From an uncultured Planctomycetota bacterium (GTDB lineage Bacteria; Planctomycetota; Phycisphaerae; Tepidisphaerales; Tepidisphaeraceae): 64,000 nucleotides of DNA. A program made the translations under genes and the position numbers. Below the pieces are notes generated by a model. That model was given only the letters and a program-made list of their open reading frames with translations, had not been told where the DNA came from and did no database searches. Shown here piece after piece: positions 4,830 to 57,012 of this stretch (positions are counted from its first letter, which is position 1; each line of letters starts with the position of its first letter). The stretch is from contig CAWJEN010000006.1 of assembly GCA_963841915.1 (NCBI GenBank), forward strand, positions 1,408,001-1,472,000, given 5' to 3'.

Positions 4830-5774
4830 ATGCGTCTATCACTCAGCTTTGCCGTCATTGCCGTTTCTGCTGCAACCGCCAACGCCGGACTGCTGGCCGA
4901 CTACGACGCGTCGCGTCACGACCGTTTTCTCAGCGACAACGGCACCAGCCGGACGTTCAACCCGGACTTCCACATGGCCGGCTTCGACCTGTCAGGCCTG
5001 GGCGTCGGGGGCAACGGTGGCATCCTCATCAGCGATCGGCACGTCCTGGCGGCGACGCACTTTCGCGGCGGTTCGTACACGTTCGTCAATGCCGCCGGTG
5101 ACGAAGTTACGTTCAACGCCAGTCAGAACCGGACGATGAAAACGCGCGTGCCGAACGGCACGGGCGGGTTCAGCGAGCTCAACAGCGACGTGACGCTGGT
5201 CACGCTGGATCGTTCGGTGACAGGGGCCGACCTGTTGACGCCGATGGCCGTTGCCGATGTGCCGCTGGGCGACTTCGAGCCGCGTGACGTCTTCGTCTAC
5301 GACCAGAACAACCGGCTCGGCCGCAACCTGCTCGACGGCGGGAGCCTTGATCGTCCTGACGGCACCGTCGTCCTGCCACCGATCACGCGCCTGCAGGGCG
5401 ACAACAACGCCACCTGGGCCGTCACGTATGACTATGACACGTCGCTCAACGGCGGTGGGAACGGTGTCGGTGGGGACGAAATCGGCCTTGTCGGTGGCGA
5501 CAGCGGGCACGGTGCATTCATCCTGACCGACGCGGGCGATGTGGCCGTCATCGGCACCCACTACGCGGTGGTGACAGGCAACGGCGTTCTGCCACCAAAT
5601 CCGGGCGAAACGTACCTCAGCCTCACCAGCCTTGCCGCGGCCTATCGCACGCAGATCGAAGGCTTTGTCGCTGCCGACGGTGCGCAGGCGCGGTTCGTCA
5701 GCGTCATTCCCGAGCCCGGCACGGCGACGTTGCTGGCTGTTGGTGCGTTGGTTGCGTTGCGACGCAAGCGATAG
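4830..5774 (+). CDS. Secreted PEP-CTERM protein with trypsin-like serine protease motifs
   Basis: Signal peptide; HVLAATH, SDVTLVTLD and GGDSG; C-terminal IPEPG + TM + RRKR. Confidence 0.75.
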   Translation: MRLSLSFAVIAVSAATANAGLLADYDASRHDRFLSDNGTSRTFNPDFHMAGFDLSGLGVGGNGGILISDRHVLAATHFRGGSYTFVNAAGDEVTFNASQNRTMKTRVPNGTGGFSELNSDVTLVTLDRSVTGADLLTPMAVADVPLGDFEPRDVFVYDQNNRLGRNLLDGGSLDRPDGTVVLPPITRLQGDNNATWAVTYDYDTSLNGGGNGVGGDEIGLVGGDSGHGAFILTDAGDVAVIGTHYAVVTGNGVLPPNPGETYLSLTSLAAAYRTQIEGFVAADGAQARFVSVIPEPGTATLLAVGALVALRRKR

Positions 5775-5780
5775 AGCGTG

Positions 5781-7652
5781 TCAGCGTTGTCGCAGGCGCC
5801 ACAGCAGTCCGCTGCCCGCGAGGATGACCAGCGCGTTACCGACCCAGATGATGCTGAGGCCAATGTTTGAGGGCCGAAGCTTTGACGGGTCGGCCAGGTC
5901 GCCCTCGGTGATCTTGCCGATGTCTTCGACGATGCCCTGTCCGAGCATGATGAACGCGATACACACCGCGGCCGGGACCATGGAGACGGCAAAGGCGGTG
6001 AGGAAGTTGCCGCTTTTGAACATGAGTCCGAGCCCCGCACCCATCAACGGCAGGAACGTGCAGGCGACGACGAATGCCGCCCGGGCGTGAAGTTCACCGA
6101 CGACACCGGCCTCCTGCTTGAGCAGCTTGCCGAGCAGGTACGACCGGCCGCTGATGCCCATCGGCACGCCGCCCAGCGATTCGTTGGCCCGCTGCAGGTA
6201 GTCGGCGGCGTCGAGCTCGCTTAAGGCAAACACTTCGCCTGGCATCGGCACCCGCACGCGACGCTCCACGCCACGGCCCGTCGTCGTCCGGTCGCCCACC
6301 GCGACGGCAGCGTCGGCAAAGGTGAAGGTGACGAGCATCTCGCCCGCGTCACCCGAGCCGCCGAGCGGTTCGACCTCGACGCGAGCTTGTGTCGACTCGA
6401 TGAGCAGCGTCTCCGTGCCACCCTCTGCGGTGCGGGTGATCTGGCGCAGGCGGACGGGGATGCCGTCGAAGACGAGGGCCTTGTGGTCGACAATGCGGCC
6501 CGGAGCGTCGGCGGAAAAGCGGTAGTCGCGCCGGTCACCCTGGGCGGTGTCGGCGTCATCGGCATCGGGCACGTCCGGCGCCAGCGTGATGCCGCCACCG
6601 ACGGCCCGCTCGCTTAGGCGGCGAAGGTAGACGACCTGCTGGTCGAGGCGTGCCTGACCGTCGAGGATGCGGCTGATGCGGCTGGCCCGTTCGGGTTCGA
6701 CGAGCAGGCCACGCAGCTCACCGACGGCCATGAACTTCGGATTCGTACGCAGCGGCACCTCGCGGCGGATCGGGCCGAACTGGGCCGAACTGGCGGCGGC
6801 AATCATCGGGGCCGGTCCGTCACCGTCGGTCTTGGTGCCGATCGTGGGCGGAAACTTTGCCCCGTCTGCCAGGACGACGCTGATGATAAATTCGCTTCGG
6901 GTCAGGGCCGATTGTTCAAACCCGTCGCGGCCGTAACCGGGCGGCTCGATGAAGATCGTCGCCGACGCGGCGGCGTAATACTCCTCCGGCACGCGGGGCA
7001 ACGTTTCCTCCCGCTCGCCCCCGCGATATCGCACCACGGCGGCGTCTTCGAGGCGTACGACCTGCACGTTGTCGCTGGCAAAGGCGGTGAGGCGGCCTTC
7101 GTCGCGGGCGCGGGAAACGATCTGAGCGATCTCCTCGTCGCTGGGCAGGATGGCCCGGCGTGCAAACACCGTCACGCGGCCGCCCTGGCCGGTGAACGTC
7201 GCCCGGCTCGTGCGGTTGATCTGGCTGCTGACGAGTTGTGCGAGATTGCCCCAGACGGTCTGCTCGACCTTCAAGTTGGCGAACGGGACGACGGTGGTCA
7301 GCAGGCTGACGGTGGTGAGCCCGAGGAGCCCGCCGAGCACGAGGGCCGGAAGCAGCAGGCCGAATGGTGACACGGCGACCCCGGCGGCCTTGGCGGCTGT
7401 GGCTTCGTTGTCGGCCGCCATGCGGCCGTACACAAAGCTCGTCGCAAACAACGCCGCCACCGGTAGCGAATAGACCAGCATCGCCGGCATCAGCCACGCC
7501 AGCACCGTCACGGCCTGGACGGTGCCCAAACCCTGCTCGCCGAGCGGTTTGAGCAGGCCGGCGAAGCTCAACACGCCCGCCAGCGTGACCGTCGTCAACA
7601 CAAAGACCCGAAGCAGGTCGCGGAAGATGTAGCGGAACAGCGTGCTACCCAC
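5781..7652 (-). CDS. LptF/LptG family LPS-export permease
   Basis: N-terminal LFRYIFRDL and YGRMAADNEATAAKAAGV; 3 TM, large periplasmic region, 3 TM. Confidence 0.85.
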   Translation of the reverse strand: MGSTLFRYIFRDLLRVFVLTTVTLAGVLSFAGLLKPLGEQGLGTVQAVTVLAWLMPAMLVYSLPVAALFATSFVYGRMAADNEATAAKAAGVAVSPFGLLLPALVLGGLLGLTTVSLLTTVVPFANLKVEQTVWGNLAQLVSSQINRTSRATFTGQGGRVTVFARRAILPSDEEIAQIVSRARDEGRLTAFASDNVQVVRLEDAAVVRYRGGEREETLPRVPEEYYAAASATIFIEPPGYGRDGFEQSALTRSEFIISVVLADGAKFPPTIGTKTDGDGPAPMIAAASSAQFGPIRREVPLRTNPKFMAVGELRGLLVEPERASRISRILDGQARLDQQVVYLRRLSERAVGGGITLAPDVPDADDADTAQGDRRDYRFSADAPGRIVDHKALVFDGIPVRLRQITRTAEGGTETLLIESTQARVEVEPLGGSGDAGEMLVTFTFADAAVAVGDRTTTGRGVERRVRVPMPGEVFALSELDAADYLQRANESLGGVPMGISGRSYLLGKLLKQEAGVVGELHARAAFVVACTFLPLMGAGLGLMFKSGNFLTAFAVSMVPAAVCIAFIMLGQGIVEDIGKITEGDLADPSKLRPSNIGLSIIWVGNALVILAGSGLLWRLRQR

Positions 7653-7671
7653 GGCAACCTTTATTCTTCAG

Positions 7672-7745
7672 TCGGGATGACAGGATTCGAACCTGCGACA
7701 TCTTGCTCCCAAAGCAAGCACTCTACCAAGCTGAGCTACATCCCG
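7672..7745 (-). tRNA. tRNA-Pro (TGG), CCA not encoded
   Basis: Reverse complement CGGGATGTAGCTCAGCTTGGTAGAG...CTTGCTTTGGGAGCAAG...GGTTCGAATCC...ATCCCGA folds as a cloverleaf. Confidence 0.95.
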
Positions 7746-7845
7746 ATCGTCGGCCACAGTCTACACGCTCCGACGGCCGAGACGACAGGGCGATCCTGGA
7801 GGGCCGCTTGTGCGTTGCTCATGTCGAGAGGCTTACGCTCTTGCC

Positions 7846-8988
7846 ATGCGGATGCCGCTGATGATGTTGGGCCTGATTCTGGCCGGTTGTGCGTCGACCG
7901 AGCCGCCGGCGGAGCCTTCGCAGTGGGACGTTCGCGGCGGTACCAACGAGGTCGGGCCGGCCGTCTACGCGGGCGACACGATTCTGCTCGATTACCAGCC
8001 GACGCAGCAGCTTGTCACCGACCACACGCTGCCCGATGCCGCCAGGTTCCCGGCCATCGATGTGCATTGTCACTGGTCGCTCGAGCAGGACCCGCAGGCG
8101 ATGCTGGCGGCCATGGACACGCTCAACCTCACCCACGCCGTCAATCTCAGCGGCGGTGACACGATCGAAAAGATCGCGGCGATGAGGCAGCAGTTCGACA
8201 GCGAACGCTTCGTCATCCTCGCCAACCTCGACTACAACCGGCTTGGCGACGACGACTTTTACCGCCAGTACCTCATCGACGCCCAAGCGGCGGGGGCCAA
8301 GGGCCTGAAGATCTGGAAAAACCTCGGCCTGGGATTGAAAGACGCCGACGGCCGACGCGTGGCCGTCGATGACAAGCGGCTCGACGTCGTCTGGCAAACC
8401 TGCGGCGAGCTCGGCATGCCCGTGCTCGTCCACGTCGCCGACCCGGCAGCATTCTTCGAGCCGATCGACGCCCGCAACGAACGCTGGACGCAGCTCTACC
8501 GCCACCCCGATTGGTCGTTCTACGGCGACGAATTTCCGAGCCGGCGGCAGATACTGGCCGAGCGGGACCGCATGATCGCCCGGCATCCACAGACGCAGTT
8601 CATCGGTGCCCACGTCGCCAACGAGGCCGAAGATCTGGCGTCGCTGGCCGAGCGGATGCGGAAGCTGCCCAACTTGCACGCCGACATCAGCGGCCGCGTC
8701 GCGGAGTTGGGCCGCCAGCCGTACTCCGCCCGCAAGTTCTTTCTCGAGTTTCAGGACCGCGTCATGTTCGGCACCGACCGCTACCCCGGCCGCCCCGATC
8801 AACCGCGGTATCGCCGATACTTCGAGTTCCTCGAGACCGACGACGAGTCGTTCGACTACCACGAACACGCCTTCCCGCCGACGGGCGAGTGGAAGATCTA
8901 CGGCATCTTCCTGCCGGACGACGTGCTGAAGAAGATCTACCACGACAACGCCGCCAACTTGCTCGGCCTTTCCGCAAGCCGCCCATGA
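7846..8988 (+). CDS. Amidohydrolase family lipoprotein
   Basis: Lipobox LAGC; IDVHCH, GLKIWK, VHVADP, GAH and FGTD motifs. Confidence 0.85.
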   Translation: MRMPLMMLGLILAGCASTEPPAEPSQWDVRGGTNEVGPAVYAGDTILLDYQPTQQLVTDHTLPDAARFPAIDVHCHWSLEQDPQAMLAAMDTLNLTHAVNLSGGDTIEKIAAMRQQFDSERFVILANLDYNRLGDDDFYRQYLIDAQAAGAKGLKIWKNLGLGLKDADGRRVAVDDKRLDVVWQTCGELGMPVLVHVADPAAFFEPIDARNERWTQLYRHPDWSFYGDEFPSRRQILAERDRMIARHPQTQFIGAHVANEAEDLASLAERMRKLPNLHADISGRVAELGRQPYSARKFFLEFQDRVMFGTDRYPGRPDQPRYRRYFEFLETDDESFDYHEHAFPPTGEWKIYGIFLPDDVLKKIYHDNAANLLGLSASRP

Positions 8989-10382
8989 CACAACCGTTTG
9001 TCCTGTCGACGCTGTTCGTGCTCGGGCTGTTGCTCGTCGGCTTCGTCCTGCGGGCGGGCATCAAGCCGCTTCGCCTGCTGTTCGTGCCGGCCAGCGTCGT
9101 CGGCGGGATCGTCGGGCTGGGCGTGATTCAGGCGGTGCTCCGAACGGACGCGGCAGGCATCGCGGCTGACATCAGCAATGTCATCGCCGATTGGCCGGGC
9201 CTGCTGATCGCAGTCGTCTTCGCCGGCCTGCTCATGGAGCGGCCGGGCAAGAAGTTCAGCGAGGCCATCGTCGCCGCCAGTCGGCAGGGCATTGTCGTCT
9301 GGATCATCGTCTTCGGCGAGGCCTTCGTCGGGCTGCTGGCGTGTGCGCTCTTCATCCTGCCGTACTACGACGTGCCGGCGAGCTTCGGACAGCTCATCGA
9401 AACCGGCTTCGCCGGCGGGCACGGCACGGCGGCGGCGATGGGCGAGGTCTACGACGCCCTCGACTTCGCCCAGGGGCGCGACCTGGCGTTCCTCTTCGCC
9501 ACGGTCGGCCTGCTCTACGGCGTGGTCAGCGGCATCTTCTTCGTCAACCTCGGCGTGCGACGCGGCTGGCTCCGCGGCGGGCCGCACACGCAAGCCGTCG
9601 ACACGCCTAGTGACATCACCATCCCCGTCGTCTCCGGCCTCGAGGCGCGTCACGACCCCAAGCCGTCTGCCTTTGCACGCGTTCGGGCGGAAGTCATCGA
9701 TCCGTTGGCGTTTCAGCTGTGCCTGCTGGCCGTCGCCTTCGCGGTGGGATTCGCGTTGCAGCAGCTTTTCCTGCTCGTCGCCGGTGCCGTTGCGCCCGAA
9801 GATGCCCTCAAGTTCGTCGGCAAAATCCCGCTCTTCCTCTTCACGCTCCTCGGCGGCTGGGTCACGCGCGAGGCCATGCACCTGCTCGGCGTCGGCGACC
9901 TCATCGACGGCCCGTCCATCCACCGGCTCGGCGGCATCGCGATGGAGATCCTCATCGTCGCCGCCCTCGCCACGCTTCGCCTCGAGGCGGCGGCGGACTT
10001 CCTCGTGCCCGTGCTCATCCTGCTCGGCGTCGGCTTCGCGTGGGTCGCCTTCTGCCTGCTCTGGGTCGGCCGAAAGCTCTTGCCGCGGCAGCACTGGTTC
10101 GAGTTGGGCCTGCTGAACTACGGCATGAGCACCGCCACGACCGCCCAAGGCGTGCTGCTGCTCCGCATCGTCGACCGCGATCTCGATACCGACGCCGCCA
10201 GCGACTACGCGGCAGCGGCACCGCTATCGGCACCGTTCATCGGTGGCGGCGTCATCACGGTCCTTGGCTTGCCGCTGGCGCTTGCGAGCTTCAATGTCTG
10301 GACGGTGCTCTCCGTCATGGCGGTCGTGCTCATTGCACTCTTCATCGCCGGCTGGTTACTGAGGGACCGGCAAAAAGTTTAG
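8985..10382 (+). CDS. Sodium/glutamate symporter (GltS/ESS family)
   Basis: LFVPASVVGG and GFAGGHGTAAAM; many TM helices; ATGA overlap with the upstream stop. Confidence 0.85.
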   Translation: MTQPFVLSTLFVLGLLLVGFVLRAGIKPLRLLFVPASVVGGIVGLGVIQAVLRTDAAGIAADISNVIADWPGLLIAVVFAGLLMERPGKKFSEAIVAASRQGIVVWIIVFGEAFVGLLACALFILPYYDVPASFGQLIETGFAGGHGTAAAMGEVYDALDFAQGRDLAFLFATVGLLYGVVSGIFFVNLGVRRGWLRGGPHTQAVDTPSDITIPVVSGLEARHDPKPSAFARVRAEVIDPLAFQLCLLAVAFAVGFALQQLFLLVAGAVAPEDALKFVGKIPLFLFTLLGGWVTREAMHLLGVGDLIDGPSIHRLGGIAMEILIVAALATLRLEAAADFLVPVLILLGVGFAWVAFCLLWVGRKLLPRQHWFELGLLNYGMSTATTAQGVLLLRIVDRDLDTDAASDYAAAAPLSAPFIGGGVITVLGLPLALASFNVWTVLSVMAVVLIALFIAGWLLRDRQKV

Positions 10383-50365: not shown

Positions 50366-51355
50366 TCAGTCCAGCTTCACATCGACGTAGACCGGCAGGT
50401 GGTCGCTCGCCACCCGCGCCCAGGGCGTGTCGTACACGCCGATGACCTGCACCTGTGGTGCGAGGTCGGGCGTGGCGACGATGTGATCGATAAAGCTGCG
50501 ATACCGATCCCGCCAGTAACCGCTGAAGGTTTGGACGCCTGCGTCGGCAAGGCTTTGCGTGACGAGGACGAGATCGTTCGTCGCGTCGTCGTCATTGGTG
50601 CCGACAAGGTCGCCGATGACATCGCCGCCGGCTTCGAGCTCGAATTCCTGCACGCCGACCTCGTCGTTCATGTCGCCCAGCAGGAGGACGCCGGCCTCGC
50701 CCTTGGCGGCGAGATCACGGATGATGTCGTGCGTCGCCTTGGCTTCTGCGGCACGCCACCTGGTGACCTCAACGCTGTTGCCGCCTTTGGACTTCTGGTG
50801 CGTGACGCCGACCCAGACCCGCTTGCCGTCAGGCGTCTCGACCAACACGAACGCCGGCCCGCGGGCAAAGAGAAAGTCGCTCCTGGGATTCAGATCGCCT
50901 TCGTCGGGCATCTTGTAGAACTGGTCTTCGGTCTCGACGATGGTGAACCCGTCTCGCAAAAGGATGCCCAGCGTCTGCACGCGATCCGAGTTGCCGGCAA
51001 AGACGACCCGCGTCGGGTAGGTGCCTTCAAGCCACTGGTCGGCGAATGCATCGAGCGAGGCCTGGTCGCACCCTTCTTCGAACACGAGCACGTCGGGGGC
51101 AAATGCCGGATCAAGCAGGACCTGGGCGATTTCCCAGTTGTCTTCGTCGTTCTGATATCGCTCCTGGGTCCGCTGCTCGCGGCCTTCTTCGGTGGCAGGC
51201 TCGGGCAGACCCTTGTCGCGAAGGGACTGAAAGTGGTCGTTCCAGTTCTCGATGTTCCACGTCGCCACCCGCACGTTCCCGGGCATCGGCGGCGCGGCGA
51301 GCGCGGGCGACGCGACACACAGAAGGGCGGCAACGGCAAGGGCGGAACGGATCAC
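50366..51355 (-). CDS. Secreted endonuclease/exonuclease/phosphatase family protein
   Basis: Signal peptide; ATWNIEN, HQKSK, LGDMND, IDHI and ASDHLPV. Confidence 0.88.
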   Translation of the reverse strand: MIRSALAVAALLCVASPALAAPPMPGNVRVATWNIENWNDHFQSLRDKGLPEPATEEGREQRTQERYQNDEDNWEIAQVLLDPAFAPDVLVFEEGCDQASLDAFADQWLEGTYPTRVVFAGNSDRVQTLGILLRDGFTIVETEDQFYKMPDEGDLNPRSDFLFARGPAFVLVETPDGKRVWVGVTHQKSKGGNSVEVTRWRAAEAKATHDIIRDLAAKGEAGVLLLGDMNDEVGVQEFELEAGGDVIGDLVGTNDDDATNDLVLVTQSLADAGVQTFSGYWRDRYRSFIDHIVATPDLAPQVQVIGVYDTPWARVASDHLPVYVDVKLD

Positions 51356-51387
51356 GCCAAACCCTATCCAGCAACGCCAGCCGCCGC

Positions 51388-51558
51388 TTAAGCCTTGCGC
51401 ATTGGCGGTGGGGCGATCTGGCAAGCCTCGCCCAGGTGCGACGGAGCCACGTGCAACATCGGCGGCGTCTCCACCCCCGAGCCGTCCGCCGTCCGCACCC
51501 GGACCCGAAGAAACGACAGCCACCGCCGCAAGAAGCGCCTCCGCCGACGGTTCCTCAC
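51388..51558 (-). CDS. Possible 56-aa Arg-rich small protein
   Basis: GTG start after AGGGGG; VRNRRRRRFLRRWLSFLRV...; no family recognised. Confidence 0.3.
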   Translation of the reverse strand: MRNRRRRRFLRRWLSFLRVRVRTADGSGVETPPMLHVAPSHLGEACQIAPPPMRKA

Positions 51559-51979
51559 GTCCCCCCTGTGCGAGTCAGCCCCGGCCGCCGCCGAATCGCA
51601 CGACGCGGGTGGGTATGGATCTTGCCATGGCCAGCTCGCCCTTGTCGCCACCCCGGCCGATGCGGTACAACATGTGCGTGCGACGGCTGCGAACATCACG
51701 CTGTACTCAAGGGGTCGAAAAGGCTCGCGACCCCTTTATCTGCCTCACCGCGTGCAACGATTGCCGATCCCCCCAGGCAACAACGCGAGGAAAAGGCTCG
51801 CGACTCCTTTATCTGCCTCACCGCGTGCAACGATTGCCGATCCCCCCAGGCAACAACGCGAGGAAAAGGCTCGCGACCCCTTTATCTGCCTCCCGCGACC
51901 CCTTTATCTGCCTCAGTGGGTGTACGGACGAAGGCGTTACATACTTTCATTGAAAATACTCTACTGGAGATAGACGCAG

Positions 51980-52699
51980 ATGAAGTCATTACCACTCCTC
52001 ACACTGGCAGCCGCGATATCATGCGGCTTCATTATGTACCACGTGGTGAATGGCGGCTCGCAAGTTTTCACGATGATCAAGACGAGTTCTCTAGCAGACT
52101 TCGATAGTGTCTTTCACAAAATAGGAGCTCAATCGCTTCTTGCAGACAGTTTAGGCGAAGATATCTATACCGAGGCATATGATTTCGGATCAGAAAGGAT
52201 CTATTTCGTGAAAGTTAAGTTCCCTGATGACGAAGATCTCCAAAATTGGTTAGCCAGTACGCCAGCTATCACGTCCGGCGAAGTCAATGAATATCATCAA
52301 GTAGCTATCGCGAGACGATTTAGGAGCAATCTGAATGTGTTTCCGGGATGGTTTCCACCAGAAGCAATCGAGAGCGGGAGAACTTTCTTTGGCGAGAGCA
52401 TTAGTGGCAATTACATCGGGTGGATGGCGGCAAGCAGAGGTCGCTCGCAAACTGATGGGGCACACCTCTTTTTCCTCATGGTTCGAGAGCACAGGGAAGA
52501 TAAAGGGGGACGGCAGACAAAGGGGGCAGACAAAGGGGTCGCGAGCCTTTTCTGCCTCCGGATGTTTCATGGCCCGGTCTACCCTTGTCGCCACCCCGGC
52601 CGAAGCGGTATAACATGCGGGTGCGAACATCATGCTGTGCTCACGGTGTCGAAAAAGCTCGCGACCCCTTTACCTGCCTCCCGGAATCAATTAAGGTGA
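51980..52699 (+). CDS. Low-GC orphan cargo ORF 1 (N-terminal hydrophobic segment; reads through into the repeats)
   Basis: GGAGA RBS; AT-rich codon usage up to ~52500, then the frame continues through REP sequence. Confidence 0.6.
   Translation: MKSLPLLTLAAAISCGFIMYHVVNGGSQVFTMIKTSSLADFDSVFHKIGAQSLLADSLGEDIYTEAYDFGSERIYFVKVKFPDDEDLQNWLASTPAITSGEVNEYHQVAIARRFRSNLNVFPGWFPPEAIESGRTFFGESISGNYIGWMAASRGRSQTDGAHLFFLMVREHREDKGGRQTKGADKGVASLFCLRMFHGPVYPCRHPGRSGITCGCEHHAVLTVSKKLATPLPASRNQLR
52532..52671 (+). promoter_or_regulatory. REP doublet enclosing a sigma70-like promoter (TTGTCG-N18-TATAAC); related copies at ~51620-51737, 53409-53557 and truncated at 54650-54720
   Basis: Near-identical ~100-bp core CATGGCCCGGTCTACCCTTGTCGCCACCCCGGCCGAAGCGGTA(T/C)AACATG. 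Confidence 0.55.
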
Positions 52700-52944
52700 A
52701 CCGCGTGCGGCAGCCCTCCACCATGCCTGATGTCCGCCCGCTAATGCCGGGTGAGCCACAACAAAGGCTCGCGACCCCTTTATCCGCCCTAAGGTGAACC
52801 GCGTGCGGCAGCCCTCCACCATGCCTGATGTCCGCCCGCTAATGCCGGGTGAGCCACAACAAAGGCTCGCGACCCCTTTATCCGCCCTAGCAGAGTGTTT
52901 CGGTCAATGTGGCGGGTTCGCCTCATGTGGAGGAGGTGGTTCCT

Positions 52945-53394
52945 TTGCTTAGTAGATTTAAGATTGTTACATGGATCATGCAATGGCGAGTCTTGCTAGT
53001 CGCGGTGCCTGCATTGTTTGTGTTCCTATGCCTTGATGTTGAGCATGTGAGGATTAGGGAGACACCGGATCGAGATGCCTCCACAATACATAGAATCGAT
53101 GTCGACTCGGGAAGGTTCAAATATACTCAGACCATCATGGGGACAGAGGATTTTGTCAGGTTTGAGCAGTCAGAGCTAAGATCAGCTGAGACGGGTGTAA
53201 ACGTAAAGCTCCCATCGCTTAATCGCGTGCTGGTGCTCCAGCCGGAGCTGGTACACTTTGCCCGAATCTCAGGTGACAAAATGGTTGTATCGACCGTCAG
53301 TATCATCGTACCTGCCGCACTGACTGTAGGTGCAGGCTTGCTATTTGTTTTGATTAGCAAGACCCTGTTTCTGCGGAAGTGGAGGGGGAGATAG
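52945..53394 (+). CDS. Low-GC orphan cargo ORF 2 (two TM segments)
   Basis: GGAGGAGG RBS 8 nt before TTG; hydrophobic N- and C-terminal segments. Confidence 0.6.
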   Translation: MLSRFKIVTWIMQWRVLLVAVPALFVFLCLDVEHVRIRETPDRDASTIHRIDVDSGRFKYTQTIMGTEDFVRFEQSELRSAETGVNVKLPSLNRVLVLQPELVHFARISGDKMVVSTVSIIVPAALTVGAGLLFVLISKTLFLRKWRGR

Positions 53395-53640
53395 AAAGGG
53401 GCGGAGATAAAGGGGTCGCGAGCCTTTTCTGCCTCCGGATGGTTCATGGCCCGGTCTACCCTTGTCGCCACCCCGGCCGAAGCGGTACAACATGCGGGTG
53501 CGACGGCTGCGAACATCAAGCTGTACTCAAGGTGTCGAAAAGGCTCGCGACCCTTTTACCTGCCCCCCTTTTATCTGCCCTCAAGGTGTCGAAAAGGCTC
53601 GCGACCCCTTTATCTGCCCCGAAAGAAAAGAATCACGAGA

Positions 53641-54303
53641 ATGTACCACCTCGAGCTGGGGTGCCGTATCCGACGACTGGTGAAATGCCGTGGAACATGT
53701 TTGGCTGAAACCGCTTCCCGACCCACTTCAACAGCCATGCTCCTTTTCCTCGCAACAACCATCTTCGGAGCTCTCTCAACTGCATTGCCAGGATCTTCAT
53801 GTTCTGAAGGATCGACTACAGCCGTGTTCGTCGTGAGACAGTCTGCTCACCTTTCGTTCTACGATCTAGATGGAACGGCATCGCCATCACATGTAAAGAT
53901 AGTGCGACATGCAGTCGTCATCCAGGATGTGTGGGTTGACATCGCAATCTCTAAAACCGCTTTATCCGGTGGTCTATGCCCGTGTAGTCAGGAAGTTTGC
54001 ATTTGGGCTGTCGACGATTCAGAGCCGAAGCAAGAGTGGCGGCAGGTGCACGCGGTCGGCCTAGAACTTCTTAAACCTCAAGAAGCTGTTAGATGGTCGG
54101 AGAACGGCGGGAACAGGGTTCTGCTTGCTTCTGCTGATGCGGAAGTTCGTCGTGTCAAAGGACATGTGATTAACGAGTACATGTCTAGGTTATCAGATGT
54201 TGTGTCTGGAGCTGATAATGATGACACTGATCGAGAGTTACTCACCACCACAGTTGAGACGGTTGCTGTGCTTCCGAGGGAGCAATCGCGATTGGAGGAA
54301 TGA
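53641..54303 (+). CDS. Low-GC orphan cargo ORF 3 (possibly exported; alternative start 53737)
   Basis: Open frame across the low-GC tract; MLLFLATTIFGALSTA is signal-like. Confidence 0.55.
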   Translation: MYHLELGCRIRRLVKCRGTCLAETASRPTSTAMLLFLATTIFGALSTALPGSSCSEGSTTAVFVVRQSAHLSFYDLDGTASPSHVKIVRHAVVIQDVWVDIAISKTALSGGLCPCSQEVCIWAVDDSEPKQEWRQVHAVGLELLKPQEAVRWSENGGNRVLLASADAEVRRVKGHVINEYMSRLSDVVSGADNDDTDRELLTTTVETVAVLPREQSRLEE

Positions 54304-54342
54304 CGGTACCTCGGTGGAGATCAGCAGATAAAGGGTCGCGAG

Positions 54343-54552
54343 GGCTCTGTCTCGACCCTCTTCTTCGCCTGAGGACCATCGTGTTGTGGACGACGCTCTT
54401 GAGCAGCATCTCCATCTCCCGGCCGCGACGCGTGCGGCCCCGCAGCGTGTCGCCCAGGTTCCGCTTCATCATCGAGTTCACGCACTCGACGCCCGAGCGC
54501 CGCCGGTAGGCCACGCCCCCGCCGTCGCGGCGGAACTTCTTGTGCATCCGCC
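54343..54552 (-). mobile_element. 3' fragment of a DDE transposase (IS5/IS4-like) with probable terminal repeat
   Basis: YRRRSGVECVNSMMKRNLG...LLKSVVHN (Y-R-E-K signature); ends in GGCTCTGTCTCGACCC, abutting a truncated REP. Confidence 0.7.
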
Positions 54553-54749
54553 GAGAGAATAAAGGGGTCGCGGAGAGAATAAAGGGGTCGCGAGCCTTTT
54601 CTCCGTGCCTAGCCTGCTGCCATGCCTCGCACCTCGCGAGGCGGCAGACAAAGGGGTCGCGAGCCTTTTCTGCCTCCGGATGTTTCATGGCCCGGTCTAC
54701 CCTTGTCGCCACCCCGGCCGGGGGCAGATAAAGGGGTCGCGAGCCTTTT

Positions 54750-54855
54750 TTGCCGCGCCTAGCGTGCTCCCATGCCTCGTACCCCGCGTGACGCCCCCGG
54801 CGGACTCGTCTACCACGTCCTCAACCGGGCCGTCGCCCCCCTGGCCATCTTCGAG
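54750..54855 (+). pseudogene. Truncated duplicate of the RAYT leader and first ~28 codons (shorter variant at 54601-54640)
   Basis: Matches 54916-55021 except GTCGCCCCC versus GTTGCACGT. Confidence 0.85.
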
Positions 54856-54937
54856 AGGGAGATAAAGGGGTCGCGAGCCTTTTCCAAGCGGAGACAAAGG
54901 GGTCGCGAGCCTTTTTTGCCGCGCCTAGCGTGCTCCC

Positions 54938-55678
54938 ATGCCTCGTACCCCGCGTGACGCCCCCGGCGGACTCGTCTACCACGTCCTCAACCGGGCCGTT
55001 GCACGTCTGGCCATCTTCGAGACGGACGGCGACTATGCGGCGTTCGTCAAGGTGTTCCGCCAGGCGGTCGAGCGGCAGGATCGGCTGGCGAAGGAGGGCC
55101 GTGCCAAGCGGGTTGACGTGCTGGCGTGGTGTCTGATGCCGAATCACTGGCACCTCGTCCTGCGGCCGCGAGGCGACGGCGAGCTGTCGACCTTCATGCG
55201 GTGGCTGACGATGACCCACACGCAGCGGTGGCACGCCAACCGGCGGTCGGCGGGGACCGGGCCGTTGTACCAGGGGCGGTTCAAGAGCTTTCCCATTGAT
55301 CCGCATCACGATGGGCACCATCTGACGGGTGTGCTGGCCTACGTGGAGCAGAACGCCCGGCGGGCGGGACTGGCCCAGACGGCGGCGGCGTGGCCTTGGG
55401 GCAGCCTCGGGCGGCGGCCAGGCGGCGAGTATGAGCGGCACGAAGAGCCGGGGCCACGCCTGCTGCCGATCGAGCGGCTGCCGGGCGGGCACGCGTGGAC
55501 GGCGGACGCGTGGCAGAAACACGTCGAGCAGGAATTTGACGCCGAAGTCGAGCGGGAGCTGGAGGCGAGCTTCAAGCGTGGCCGCCCGTACGGCAGCGAG
55601 CGGTGGACGAAGCGGATTGCAGGGCGGCTGAACCTCGACAGCACCCTGCGGCCGCGAGGTCGGCCACGGCTCACGTGA
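54938..55678 (+). mobile_element. REP-associated tyrosine transposase (RAYT/TnpA-REP, HUH Y1 family), apparently intact
   Basis: MPR..R, YHVLNR, CLMPNHWH (HUH), LYQGRFKSFP, YVEQNARRAGL..WPWGS and C-terminal RPRGRP. Confidence 0.92.
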
Positions 55679-55790: not shown

Positions 55791-55872
55791 TAGCGACCGT
55801 GGGACTCGAACCCACACTCCGTGAGGAACTCGATTTTGAATCGAGCGCGTCTGCCAATTCCGCCAGGCCGCC
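55791..55872 (-). tRNA. tRNA-Leu (CAA), CCA not encoded
   Basis: Reverse complement GGCGGCCTGGCGGAATTGGCAGACGCG CTCGATTCAAAATCGAG ... GTGGGTTCGAGTCCCAC GGTCGCTA, with a long variable arm. Confidence 0.95.
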
Positions 55873-55905: not shown

Positions 55906-57012
55906 ATGGCTTGTCGCGTTGCGATTCTCGGCTCCACCGGTTCGATCGGGTCGCAAACGCTCGACGCCATTGATGCGCTCAACGCCGACGGCTTTGACTT
56001 TGAGATCGTGGCGATGGTGGCCGGCAAGAACCGCAAGACGCTCGACCGGCAGGCCAGGCGGTGGCCCAATGCGACGGCGAAGCTGGCCATCGACGAAGGG
56101 CCGGGCGCGTTGGTCGAGGCGGCCGAGCGGGGCGATGTGGATGTCGTGGTGCACGCGGTGGTTGGGGCTGCCGGGCTGCCGGCTGCATTTGCTGCGTGCG
56201 AGGCCGGTCATCGCAGGCTGTGCCTGGCCAACAAAGAGTCGCTCGTCGTCGGGGGGTCGCTGCTCATGGCGACGGCTAAGGCGAATGGCGTCGACCTCGT
56301 GCCAATCGACTCGGAGCACACGGCCATTTTCCAGGCGATGGCGTGCGGGAGACGCGAGGAAGTCCGTCGCGTGCTCCTGACGGCCAGCGGCGGGCCATTT
56401 CGTGACGCTGCCGAGTGGCCGACACACAAGCTCGAGCGGGCGACGATCAAGCAGGCCCTTGACCACCCGACGTGGACCATGGGCGGCAAGATCACGGTCG
56501 ATTCGGCTACGTTGTTTAACAAGGGTTTCGAGCTTATCGAGGCGGTTCACCTTTACGGACTCAAGGCCGACGACGTGCAGGTCGTGGTTCATCCGCAGAG
56601 CATCGTTCATTCGATGGTCGAGTACGTTGACGGCAGCACGATCGCCCATCTGTCGCCGGTCGATATGAAGCTGCCGATCGCGTACGCGTTGACGCATCCG
56701 CGGCGTGGGGCGTCGGGCAGCGGGACGCTTGACTGGTCGCAGGCGATGACGCTCGACTTCGAGCCACCCGACGAGGAGCGATTTGCAGCGTTGCGGCTGT
56801 GTCGTGAAGCGGTCACGCGGGGCGGCGTTGTGCCGACGTACCTGAATGCGGCCAACGAGGTGGCGGTGAACGCATTTCTTGCCGGCGACTTGCGTTTCGG
56901 CGACATCAGCCGCGTGGTCGAGCGGGTGACGCGTCAGGCGCCGCAGCAAGAGCCGACGTCGCTGGCGGAGTTGCTTGAAGCCGACACCGCAGCACGAGTG
57001 CTGGCGGCGTGA
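55906..57012 (+). CDS. dxr: 1-deoxy-D-xylulose-5-phosphate reductoisomerase
   Basis: LGSTGSIG, LANKESL, PIDSEH, TASGGPF and HPTWTMGGKITVDSAT. Confidence 0.97.
   Translation: MACRVAILGSTGSIGSQTLDAIDALNADGFDFEIVAMVAGKNRKTLDRQARRWPNATAKLAIDEGPGALVEAAERGDVDVVVHAVVGAAGLPAAFAACEAGHRRLCLANKESLVVGGSLLMATAKANGVDLVPIDSEHTAIFQAMACGRREEVRRVLLTASGGPFRDAAEWPTHKLERATIKQALDHPTWTMGGKITVDSATLFNKGFELIEAVHLYGLKADDVQVVVHPQSIVHSMVEYVDGSTIAHLSPVDMKLPIAYALTHPRRGASGSGTLDWSQAMTLDFEPPDEERFAALRLCREAVTRGGVVPTYLNAANEVAVNAFLAGDLRFGDISRVVERVTRQAPQQEPTSLAELLEADTAARVLAA

Follow-up and report, generated by a model that had tools for sequence, protein, structure and literature searches.

The window analysed here, a 64,000-nucleotide stretch of an uncultured Planctomycetota bacterium of the family Tepidisphaeraceae (GenBank assembly GCA_963841915.1, contig CAWJEN010000006.1, positions 1,408,001 to 1,472,000), carries a gene for a REP-associated tyrosine transposase (RAYT), preceded by an array of repetitive extragenic palindromes (REPs) and three low-GC open reading frames (ORFs). 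We tentatively read this locus as a RAYT gene together with its own family of REPs and REP doublets forming hairpins (REPINs), in which REPs delimit single-gene cassettes. Throughout the genome under study (G000; 3.63 Mb in six contigs, among them C3, C5 and C6, with a GC content of 0.64 and 93.8% complete), and in other species and genera, one particular side of the REP, here termed its head, faces low-GC DNA that holds a single ORF; steps in GC content coincide with the REPs, and REP-bordered blocks differ in presence and position between two species. Recombination at the REP head, probably by RAYT acting on single-stranded hairpins, may be what inserts, removes and stacks this one-gene cargo, an explanation that we prefer but hold with reserve.

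The RAYT locus and its repeats

The original prediction described a 20-bp imperfect palindrome present in about 15 copies upstream of RAYT. A search of the window with the 20-mer AAAGGGGTCGCGAGCCTTTT, allowing up to three mismatches on both strands, gave 16 matches, which reduce to 15 sites because 53538-53557 matches on both strands; all of them lie between 51718 and 54915, no copy occurs elsewhere in the 64-kb window, and none of 100 shuffled controls yielded any match. The copy number is therefore as described, but the length is not: when 51 copies were aligned, positions -10 to +17 proved to be conserved, such that the repeating unit is 28 nt long, GGCAGATAAAGGGGTCGCGAGCCTTTTC. This REP is asymmetric, consisting of a 5' head (GGCAGAT), a hairpin (AAAGG, a 9-nt loop and CCTTT) and a tail, and with some tails its stem reaches 11 bp with one bulge. 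Among the 51 copies, heads abut either unique DNA or tandem half-copies of the head, and tails fall into few conserved classes, namely either end of a 98-nt spacer, a second tail type (common to the window and to a cluster at C5:405 kb of G000) and the RAYT leader. Tails thus point to conserved DNA, either the REPIN spacer or the RAYT gene, and heads point to variable DNA with one low-GC orphan ORF per interval. The idea that foreign DNA always joins the same face of the repeat is borne out in that cargo always lies at the head side of the REP.

The gaps between adjacent ORFs are not occupied by single repeat copies, as first described, but by inverted pairs, in which a forward REP and a reverse REP stand tail-to-tail on either side of the 98-nt spacer to form a unit of 130 bp. 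With its inverted REPs, short spacer, several conserved copies and a fold into one long hairpin (22-bp stem, -43 kcal/mol, z-score -3.85, with none of 200 shuffles equally stable), this unit answers to the definition of a REPIN. G000 has five full-length REPINs that are 89-100% identical, two of them in the window and three elsewhere (C5:572359, C5:622424 and C6:1190506, at 89-94% identity), in addition to a 76% copy at C3 and two further partial copies in the window. We considered whether the REPIN spacer is an internally deleted RAYT gene and rejected this, the alignments to the RAYT 5' and 3' ends being equalled by 274 and 214 of 500 shuffles. A consensus scan found no promoter in the spacer (the region as a whole has two sites, both within cargo, versus 1.5 expected), and Rfam models recognised a tRNA as the sole structured RNA in the region. 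CRISPR was ruled out because the copies are inverted and the intervals measure 0.5-1 kb.

From left to right, with the orientation of each repeat given by its sign, the array reads - - -, ORF1, + - - -, ORF2, + - -, ORF3, + + + + +, RAYT. Its parts and immediate neighbours, including the remnant of an insertion sequence (IS) and the RAYT of the histidine-hydrophobic-histidine (HUH) type, are as follows:

50366..51523, minus strand: left neighbour, a gene of the endonuclease/exonuclease/phosphatase (EEP) family (PF03372, E 2.6e-6) in host DNA of GC about 0.64, outside the array
51576..51717, plus strand: partial REPIN spacer without a left REP, the leftmost piece of the array (unit positions 46-165 match 51626-51744 at 90.8%)
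51708..51915, minus strand: 73-bp tandem units with three REP(-) (51718-51737, 51791-51810, 51864-51883) and a head half-copy at 51894-51915
51916..52496, plus strand: cargo 1, GC 0.475, with orphan ORF1 at 51980-52699; head half-copy stutters follow at 52497-52531
52522..52681, plus strand: REPIN 1, comprising REP(+) 52532-52551, the 98-nt spacer and REP(-) 52652-52671; 89% identical to REPIN 2
52692..52887, minus strand: two 98-bp tandem units (100% identity), each ending in a REP(-) of the second tail type (52762-52781, 52860-52879)
52888..53384, plus strand: cargo 2, GC 0.493, with orphan ORF2 at 52909-53394
53395..53620, plus strand: REPIN 2, comprising REP(+) 53409-53428, spacer and REP(-) 53538-53557, and an extra REP(-) at 53592-53611
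53621..54320, plus strand: cargo 3, GC 0.513, with orphan ORF3 at 53641-54303
54322..54548, minus strand: head and core of a degenerate REP(+) (54322-54339), interrupted by the end of an IS, then the IS remnant (54340-54548)
54549..54937, plus strand: five REP(+) (54581, 54650, 54730, 54864, 54896), a half-copy at 54549-54568 and a partial spacer
54938..55678, plus strand: RAYT-type HUH/Y1 transposase, 246 aa
55791..55872, minus strand: tRNA-Leu(CAA), the right boundary of the locus, followed by dxr (55906-57012)

The left end at 51617 that was originally assigned to the array falls inside the partial REPIN spacer, which begins near 51576. The right border of ORF3 is the degenerate copy at 54322-54339. 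The IS remnant next to it has the inverted-repeat end GGCTCTGTCTCGACCCTC and encodes, on the minus strand, the C-terminal part of an IS5/IS1182-like DDE transposase (PF01609, E 1.1e-4); this remnant is itself truncated by the next REP head. Between the five forward REPs lie two truncated leader/5' ends of RAYT, at 54597-54643 (47 nt, 81% identity) and 54747-54860 (about 110 nt, 96%), the corresponding protein fragment (54772-54864) being 87% identical over amino acids 1-31; the last REP ends 22 nt ahead of the RAYT ATG. REP heads thus abut truncated genes three times in the window, twice the RAYT 5' end and once the IS transposase gene, and arbitrary DNA therefore does get joined to REP heads here. 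The 73-bp and 98-bp tandem duplications in the array are both perfect.

The REP heads themselves form tandem "stutters" of head plus left arm, up to six in a row, at C3:201800-201926 and, in the window, at 52497-52531, 53385-53402 and 54549-54580. These are always on the cargo side and their ends vary within the loop; they may have arisen by hairpin-induced slippage or by repeated cleavage and rejoining.

An IS that targets the REP core was also encountered. It is about 1 kb long, encodes a 316-aa IS5/IS1182-like DDE transposase and has the same ends, GGCTCTGTCTCGACCCTC, as the 220-bp remnant in the window; copies or junctions occur at G073:C1 (L150) 6463-7466 and 8472-9475, G002:C14 (L132) ~6425, L135 ~6518, and C5:572783 and C5:961380 of G000. 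One of the G073 copies lies within a REP and is flanked by a 9-bp duplication, GGTCGGGAG, and two G002 contigs terminate at such junctions.

All three ORFs in the array are on the plus strand, are low in GC (0.475, 0.493 and 0.513 versus 0.64) and lie between a reverse and a forward copy of the repeat, in agreement with the description of three co-oriented low-GC orphans; only 0.00001 of same-length genome windows have a GC content as low as that of cargo 1. ORF1 has an N-terminal hydrophobic segment and, lacking a stop of its own, runs about 200 nt into REPIN 1; ORF2 has two hydrophobic segments and ends at a TAG within a head-like half-copy. None of the three belongs to a Pfam, NCBIfam, PHROG or PADLOC family, none has any relative but itself among 5.8 billion proteins, and the Atlas returned nothing. 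Conservation of the cargo in relatives, which had been named beforehand as an outcome that would speak against gene capture, was not seen, the three ORFs having no counterpart in 40 relatives (noise only, E ~1e-3).

The repeat had been proposed to be the cognate REP of a RAYT-type HUH/Y1 enzyme, and the properties of the enzyme agree with this. The ORF at 54938-55678 is intact and the only intact copy of its type in G000, and its product scores 32.5 bits against Pfam Y1_Tnp (cut-off 23). In an alignment of 37 sequences the HUH motif (H-W-H) and single Tyr are retained, with H72 invariant and H70 and Y135 at least 90% conserved. The best sequence match in the PDB is E. coli TnpAREP (4er8), with which the HUH histidines (HMH in 4er8) and the Tyr region align; the structure model (pLDDT 93.2, pTM 0.91) likewise matches 4er8_A best (E 2e-7), followed by the ISDra2, IS200 and IS608 transposases. 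Judged by its modelled fold and its motifs, the product is a RAYT-type HUH/Y1 enzyme. A forward REP stands directly upstream of the RAYT gene in G000, G001, G021 and G051.

In addition to the intact gene, G000 has three RAYT fragments and one 32%-identical paralog. The paralog (C5:936036-936749; L160 1498-2349, minus strand) lies inside a low-GC segment, C5:936101-937100, with no copy of this REP nearby, and may be a recently acquired Y1 element. Two other sites look like decayed former RAYT loci: C5:405492-406006, with seven forward REPs of the second tail type and a RAYT fragment (89% over amino acids 53-80), and C5:416839-417088, with a lone REP before a RAYT N-terminal pseudogene (71% identity, two TAG stops).

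REP borders in the rest of the genome and in relatives

Searching for the repeat across this genome and its relatives, the check recommended with the original prediction, revealed the same layout at further sites across the genome and in relatives, well in excess of chance. G000 contains about 50 REPs in 12 clusters, a genome-wide family alongside one intact RAYT, and away from the window REPs stand head-to-head around the following intervals:

C3:201.3 kb: GC 0.46-0.50, 137-aa ORF
C6:1.19 Mb: GC 0.50, 183-aa ORF
C5:554 kb: GC 0.57, ankyrin protein
C5:571-573 kb: two adjoining units, GC 0.58-0.62, DUF1559 ORF and IS remnant
C6:105 kb: GC 0.60, 208-aa ORF

By GC content, 8 of the 10 head-to-head intervals of G000 are within the lowest 5% of same-length genome windows, and 5 of the 10 are within the lowest 0.1%. 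Viewed from the clusters, 6 of 12 touch a low-GC segment (defined as GC below 0.53; G000 has 36 such segments, 24.5 kb in total), compared to a random mean of 0.24, and none of 5000 random placements reached 6. Viewed from the segments, a REP lies within 300 bp of 8 of the 36. This last count is a minimum, because the pattern searches missed the degenerate, indel-bearing REP-like head (GGGCAGATAAA...GGTCGGGAGC) at which a 1.1-kb low-GC segment (C5:1137195-1138300, GC 0.48-0.56) ends.

The GC steps coincide with REPs on both sides of the units. Between the outer and the inner 200 nt, GC falls from 0.71 to 0.475 at the left border of the window array and from 0.68 to 0.495 at its other border; at the isolated C3 unit it falls from 0.635 to 0.46 and from 0.595 to 0.48, and at the C6:1.19 Mb unit from 0.675 to 0.53 and from 0.585 to 0.47. 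A tRNA gene lies within 2 kb of 4 of the 12 REP clusters (Arg, Ile, Ser and Leu; C3:199471, C5:406678, C6:1189291 and 55791-55872 of the window), as compared to a random mean of 0.8, with 30 of 5000 placements reaching 4.

The spacing of REPs was determined for the whole of G000 and for 14 loci of relatives that were picked for holding REPs. Head-to-head gaps measured 531-3196 bp in 25 of 27 cases, and tail-to-tail gaps were no longer than 242 bp in 16 of 20, three of the other four (in G051, G021 and G001) having the RAYT gene inside. Across genomes, GC was at most 0.56 in 17 of 26 head-to-head intervals, and one open frame covered at least 69% of the interval in 22 of 26, a coverage that, in 22 of 26 intervals, no more than 3 of 200 shuffles equalled. 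The 19 cargo segments compared have no mutual similarity, and neither paralogs nor second copies of them occur elsewhere in the genome.

The exact REP is confined to the genus, where all four sister genomes (G001-G004) have it; other genera have only variants with at least two mismatches. Among the 61 genomes of the taxonomic family, unpublished G006 included, the family pattern AAAGGGGTC-RNR-AGYC is present in 27, versus 6 control hits in all, and RAYT homologs are present in 44. Scanning genome contigs at large with a 16-mer gave mostly chance matches in unrelated taxa, with multiple copies only at loci from Planctomycetota/Tepidisphaerales, and a metagenome scan with a 23-nt REP pattern returned no stretches.

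Units of REP and cargo are also present in sister species and three further genera. GC is 0.54 or less in 5 of the 6 head-to-head intervals of G001 and ranges from 0.50 to 0.58 in those of G002. In the other genera, which have variant REP loops (G021, G051, G045 and G054), low-GC units have a GC of 0.555 versus 0.665 in G045 and of 0.49 versus 0.59 in G054, and low-GC one-gene units stand directly beside RAYT in G021 and G051. In these last two, RAYT itself sits between inverted REPs with their tails to the gene and their heads outward; RAYT of the window has five forward REPs upstream and none downstream. Arrays were found in G021 and G051 only among seven RAYT loci of other genera, with IS copies at REPs in G073, and the RAYT loci of G060, G053, G066 and G014 contain no 14-mer repeated four or more times.

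Comparison with G001 shows that REP-cargo blocks and RAYT occupy different places in the two species. The RAYT region of G001 corresponds to C5:1136-1149 kb of G000, where two sites differ. At the first, about 2.1 kb arranged as REP(-), cargo, REPIN, cargo, REP(+) and RAYT lie between genes that are 78 bp apart in G000. At the second, a 2.4-kb block, which begins at a degenerate REP head and contains a REPIN, low-GC cargo, another REPIN and a PEP-CTERM gene, interrupts a lipoprotein gene that G000 has in one piece; the remainder of the split gene has a different signal peptide. The direction of change is clearest at this second site because the lipoprotein gene of G000 is intact.

The comparison of the EEP-to-tRNA-Leu interval recommended with the original prediction found no such interval in the sister species, its two flanks being far apart or on different contigs in G001, G003 and G004, and the array coincides with a synteny breakpoint relative to these three genomes. 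At G001:C1 (L128) 5927-8172, a ychF-like gene, together with RAYT, lies between inverted REPs and is inverted relative to C5:1143370-1144535 of G000, an arrangement that suggests a REP-mediated inversion.

Routes by which genes may come to lie between REPs

In the mechanism that we tentatively favor, cargo would be joined, removed or exchanged at the head side of the REP through REP-specific single-strand cleavage and strand transfer. RAYT would be the most likely enzyme for this reaction because it is the only REP-specific enzyme encoded. Passages of Ton-Hoang et al. (2012; PMC3333891) report that E. coli TnpAREP cleaves and recombines single strands of REPs and bacterial interspersed mosaic elements (BIMEs), and propose excision as a single-stranded circle followed by integration at a resident REP. 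According to this published model, an excised circle would integrate through recombination with a REP already in place; if units of cargo plus REPIN integrated repeatedly beside resident REPs, an array could build up next to RAYT, and the same reaction could seed isolated REP-cargo-REPIN units elsewhere, with the REPIN taking the role of attC in integrons or of a pdif site in dif modules. The catalytic role of RAYT, the circular intermediate and the source of the cargo are what we infer here. That RAYT and REPINs form a true gene-cassette platform, an HUH-built functional counterpart of the integron in which RAYT excises and integrates circles of ORF plus REPIN at REP heads and so stacks and seeds cassettes, is possible but, in our estimation, doubtful.

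Several observations weigh against head-side recombination by RAYT. No direct sign of cassette movement was seen, no cargo occurring twice. The polarity of cargo ORFs relative to the REPIN spacer, as read from tails and ORFs, is not constant, which counts against the mechanism because integron-like one-way insertion predicts constant polarity. The ends of the stutters are variable, and replication slippage at a hairpin would account for them without any enzyme. RAYT scores 52.2 bits against NCBIfam REP_Tyr_transpos, under the cut-off of 80, and is therefore a distant member, and no REP is present on its 3' side in the window. Two head-to-head intervals of G000, C5b (0.619) and C5d (0.661), are of ordinary GC, and REP doublets in G047 are scattered among genes of ordinary GC, like classical REPINs. 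Finally, the ychF-like gene downstream of the first G001 site is also inverted, and with a DNA identity of about 70-74% between G000 and its sister species and their scrambled synteny, insertion is not cleanly separable from rearrangement.

Mobile repeats commonly accumulate in dispensable DNA, and the low-GC genes could have arrived by unrelated routes, for example in tRNA islands, with RAYT-spread REPs and REPINs subsequently landing or persisting among them and near RAYT without any capture. We regard such passive co-localisation as rather unlikely. The proximity of a third of the clusters to tRNA genes fits this scenario, as do the 28 of 36 low-GC segments that have no REP within 300 bp and the ordinary dispersed doublets of G047, and passages of Nunvar et al. 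(2010; PMC2817692) state that new REPs arise preferentially near the rayt gene. However, GC steps match REP heads at both sides of isolated units far from RAYT (C3:201 kb and C6:1.19 Mb), with no low-GC DNA outside the REPs, and nearly all head-to-head gaps are one gene long; moreover, with no more than 12 REP clusters in about 3.6 Mb, all borders and gaps of the three-gene array are nevertheless filled. Pseudomonas REPs show the reverse tendency: in the relevant passages of Loper et al. (2012; PMC3390384), mobile elements and regions of atypical composition are REP deserts, and REPs are usually taken to mark genome regions that are old and stable, and to stay away from foreign DNA.

Alternatively, DNA organised as REPIN, gene, REPIN could have been swapped in from related strains by RecA-type recombination between the 130-170-bp REPINs, which would then serve as portable homology and require no dedicated recombinase; we judge this improbable. 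REPIN copies that are 89-94% identical over about 160 bp would suffice for homologous recombination, the perfect tandem duplications in the array show that recombination or slippage between repeats does occur, a gene between inverted REPs is inverted in G001, and the REP core is common to the genus. This route leaves unexplained how low-GC DNA from outside the genus was first joined exactly to REP heads. Nor are REPIN spacers common to G000 and its sisters (the G000 spacer has no match in the sister species' loci), so that exchange between species would depend on the 28-nt REP alone, and one side of several isolated units has just a single REP.

The palindrome might instead be the site of another recombinase, either XerC/XerD at dif-like sites or an unrecognised integron-like tyrosine recombinase. 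The geometry matches that of dif modules as presented in parts of PMC13141974 and PMC10132070, and two of the four tyrosine recombinases of G000 are XerC- and XerD-like. However, none of the four is close to a REP cluster or reaches the integron-integrase cut-offs (126-135 versus 265 bits; 82-98 versus 435 bits), and the four repeat blocks of the window contain no match to attC core motifs, in keeping with the original statement that the locus has neither IntI nor attC. The arms of the REP are 9 nt apart rather than 6, and the REP is linked to a RAYT gene in at least four genera, which together leave this alternative very unlikely. A scan with a loose motif gave one good dif-like site, C5:30437 (…CGATAA-6 nt-TTATGTGAAAT), which may serve to resolve chromosome dimers. 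It has no more than GATAA in common with the REP, a weak comparison since the site is itself just a candidate dif for this lineage.

Even less probable is that these units are mobile insertion cassettes resembling miniature inverted-repeat transposable elements, with the inverted REPs as terminal inverted repeats used in trans by a DDE transposase. Inverted 28-nt ends do surround a passenger gene without a transposase, and there are DDE IS elements that interact with REPs. Yet the isolated units show no target-site duplication outside the REPs, every unit is single-copy, and in most copies the tail is turned towards the conserved spacer and not towards host DNA; the sole IS encountered at REPs, without a systematic search for IS with REP-like ends, has unrelated ends and enters the REP core with a 9-bp duplication. 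An assembly artefact, in which repeats misjoined unrelated low-GC fragments, can be practically dismissed: repeat-rich regions are prone to misassembly, but the array is internal to a contig of 1.75 Mb in an assembly of six contigs, and the same architecture recurs at about 10 sites of G000 and in independent assemblies of other species and genera.

Likeness to known systems and further observations

In layout, the array resembles an integron: co-oriented, mostly orphan single ORFs of atypical composition are stacked between similar 130-bp imperfect palindromes, which are lineage-specific and fold as single-strand hairpins, and ORF ends lie tight against the palindrome, with the stop 0-22 nt from the head, inside it or missing. 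It differs from an integron in having an HUH nuclease adjacent and neither IntI nor attC cores, in that single units also occur around the chromosome, and in that the orientation of cargo relative to the palindrome is not fixed.

The transposases of IS91, ISCR and Helitron elements belong to a different HUH class. They share with this locus the combination of an HUH enzyme with neighboring DNA of variable length acquired beside one end (compare the truncated RAYT 5' copies), and a parallel to elements of this type is drawn in part of PMC3333891. Unlike the array, those elements move with their cargo as one unit and do not build hairpin-bounded one-gene arrays.

Close counterparts of the locus are the REPtrons, BIMEs and REPINs of E. 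coli, Pseudomonas and Stenotrophomonas. TnpAREP (4er8) is the best match of the enzyme, each genome has one intact copy, the cognate REP is asymmetric with a 5' head and a bulged hairpin, a REP lies beside the gene, REPs form REPIN doublets, and duplicated RAYT gene fragments between REPs are mentioned for other species in PMC3333891, within the part cited. In contrast to these systems, with their hundreds of dispersed REPs, there are about 50 here in 12 clusters; the head is GGCAGAT and not GTAG, and the head-to-head "linkers" are whole low-GC orphan genes and not short. Furthermore, RAYT is extended at its C-terminus by about 90 aa and falls under the NCBIfam RAYT cut-off, and the REPs are tied to DNA of atypical composition, which Pseudomonas REPs are described as avoiding in that portion of PMC3390384.

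Finally, the dif modules of Acinetobacter plasmids, as treated in parts of PMC13141974 and PMC10132070, are discrete gene modules bounded by 28-bp imperfect palindromes of alternating orientation; they fall into two classes according to the inward face and are targeted at their sites by an IS family. The REPs described here differ in being chromosomal, RAYT-linked and unlike the candidate dif of G000.

Passages of Corneloup et al. (2021; PMC8266576) describe RAYTs as single-copy, vertically kept, "domesticated" transposases in which a 5' motif guides the choice of cleavage site, and whose host function is unknown and host benefit an open question. The idea of gene capture is not wholly new: in part of their paper, Ton-Hoang et al. 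(2012; PMC3333891) suggested that neighboring genes, whole or in fragments, can become sequestered by TnpAREP/BIME units. A full-text literature search found arrays of REP-bracketed foreign ORFs undescribed, a novelty that the supplements of PMC3333891 (Figure S7) and PMC2817692 could narrow. The situation is the opposite of that in Pseudomonas, in that a small REP family clusters where the one-gene segments of lowest GC begin and end, across several species and genera. Should RAYT indeed make these junctions, there would be a second, mechanistically unrelated route to integron-like stacking, based on HUH chemistry as opposed to a tyrosine recombinase, and the sequestration idea of Ton-Hoang et al. 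would become a testable system; if, further, the locus is a cassette platform, RAYTs would gain a concrete function. Even if RAYT is not the junction maker, REPs still mark sites of gene gain in this lineage.

Among 20 cargo ORFs from several genomes, 12 are without a Pfam family, and the others are ankyrin/Sel1, DUF1559, PEP-CTERM, PT-HINT, HNH and zinc-ribbon proteins. Ankyrin or Sel1 proteins were seen as cargo in both G000 (C5:554 kb) and G021. REP-bracketed cargo on the minus strand of G002:C14 (L132), at 4942-6223, consists of an HNH/colicin-DNase-like ORF, a 177-aa ORF without a family and a PT-HINT fragment, a layout that is possibly an orphan polymorphic-toxin tip with a candidate immunity gene.

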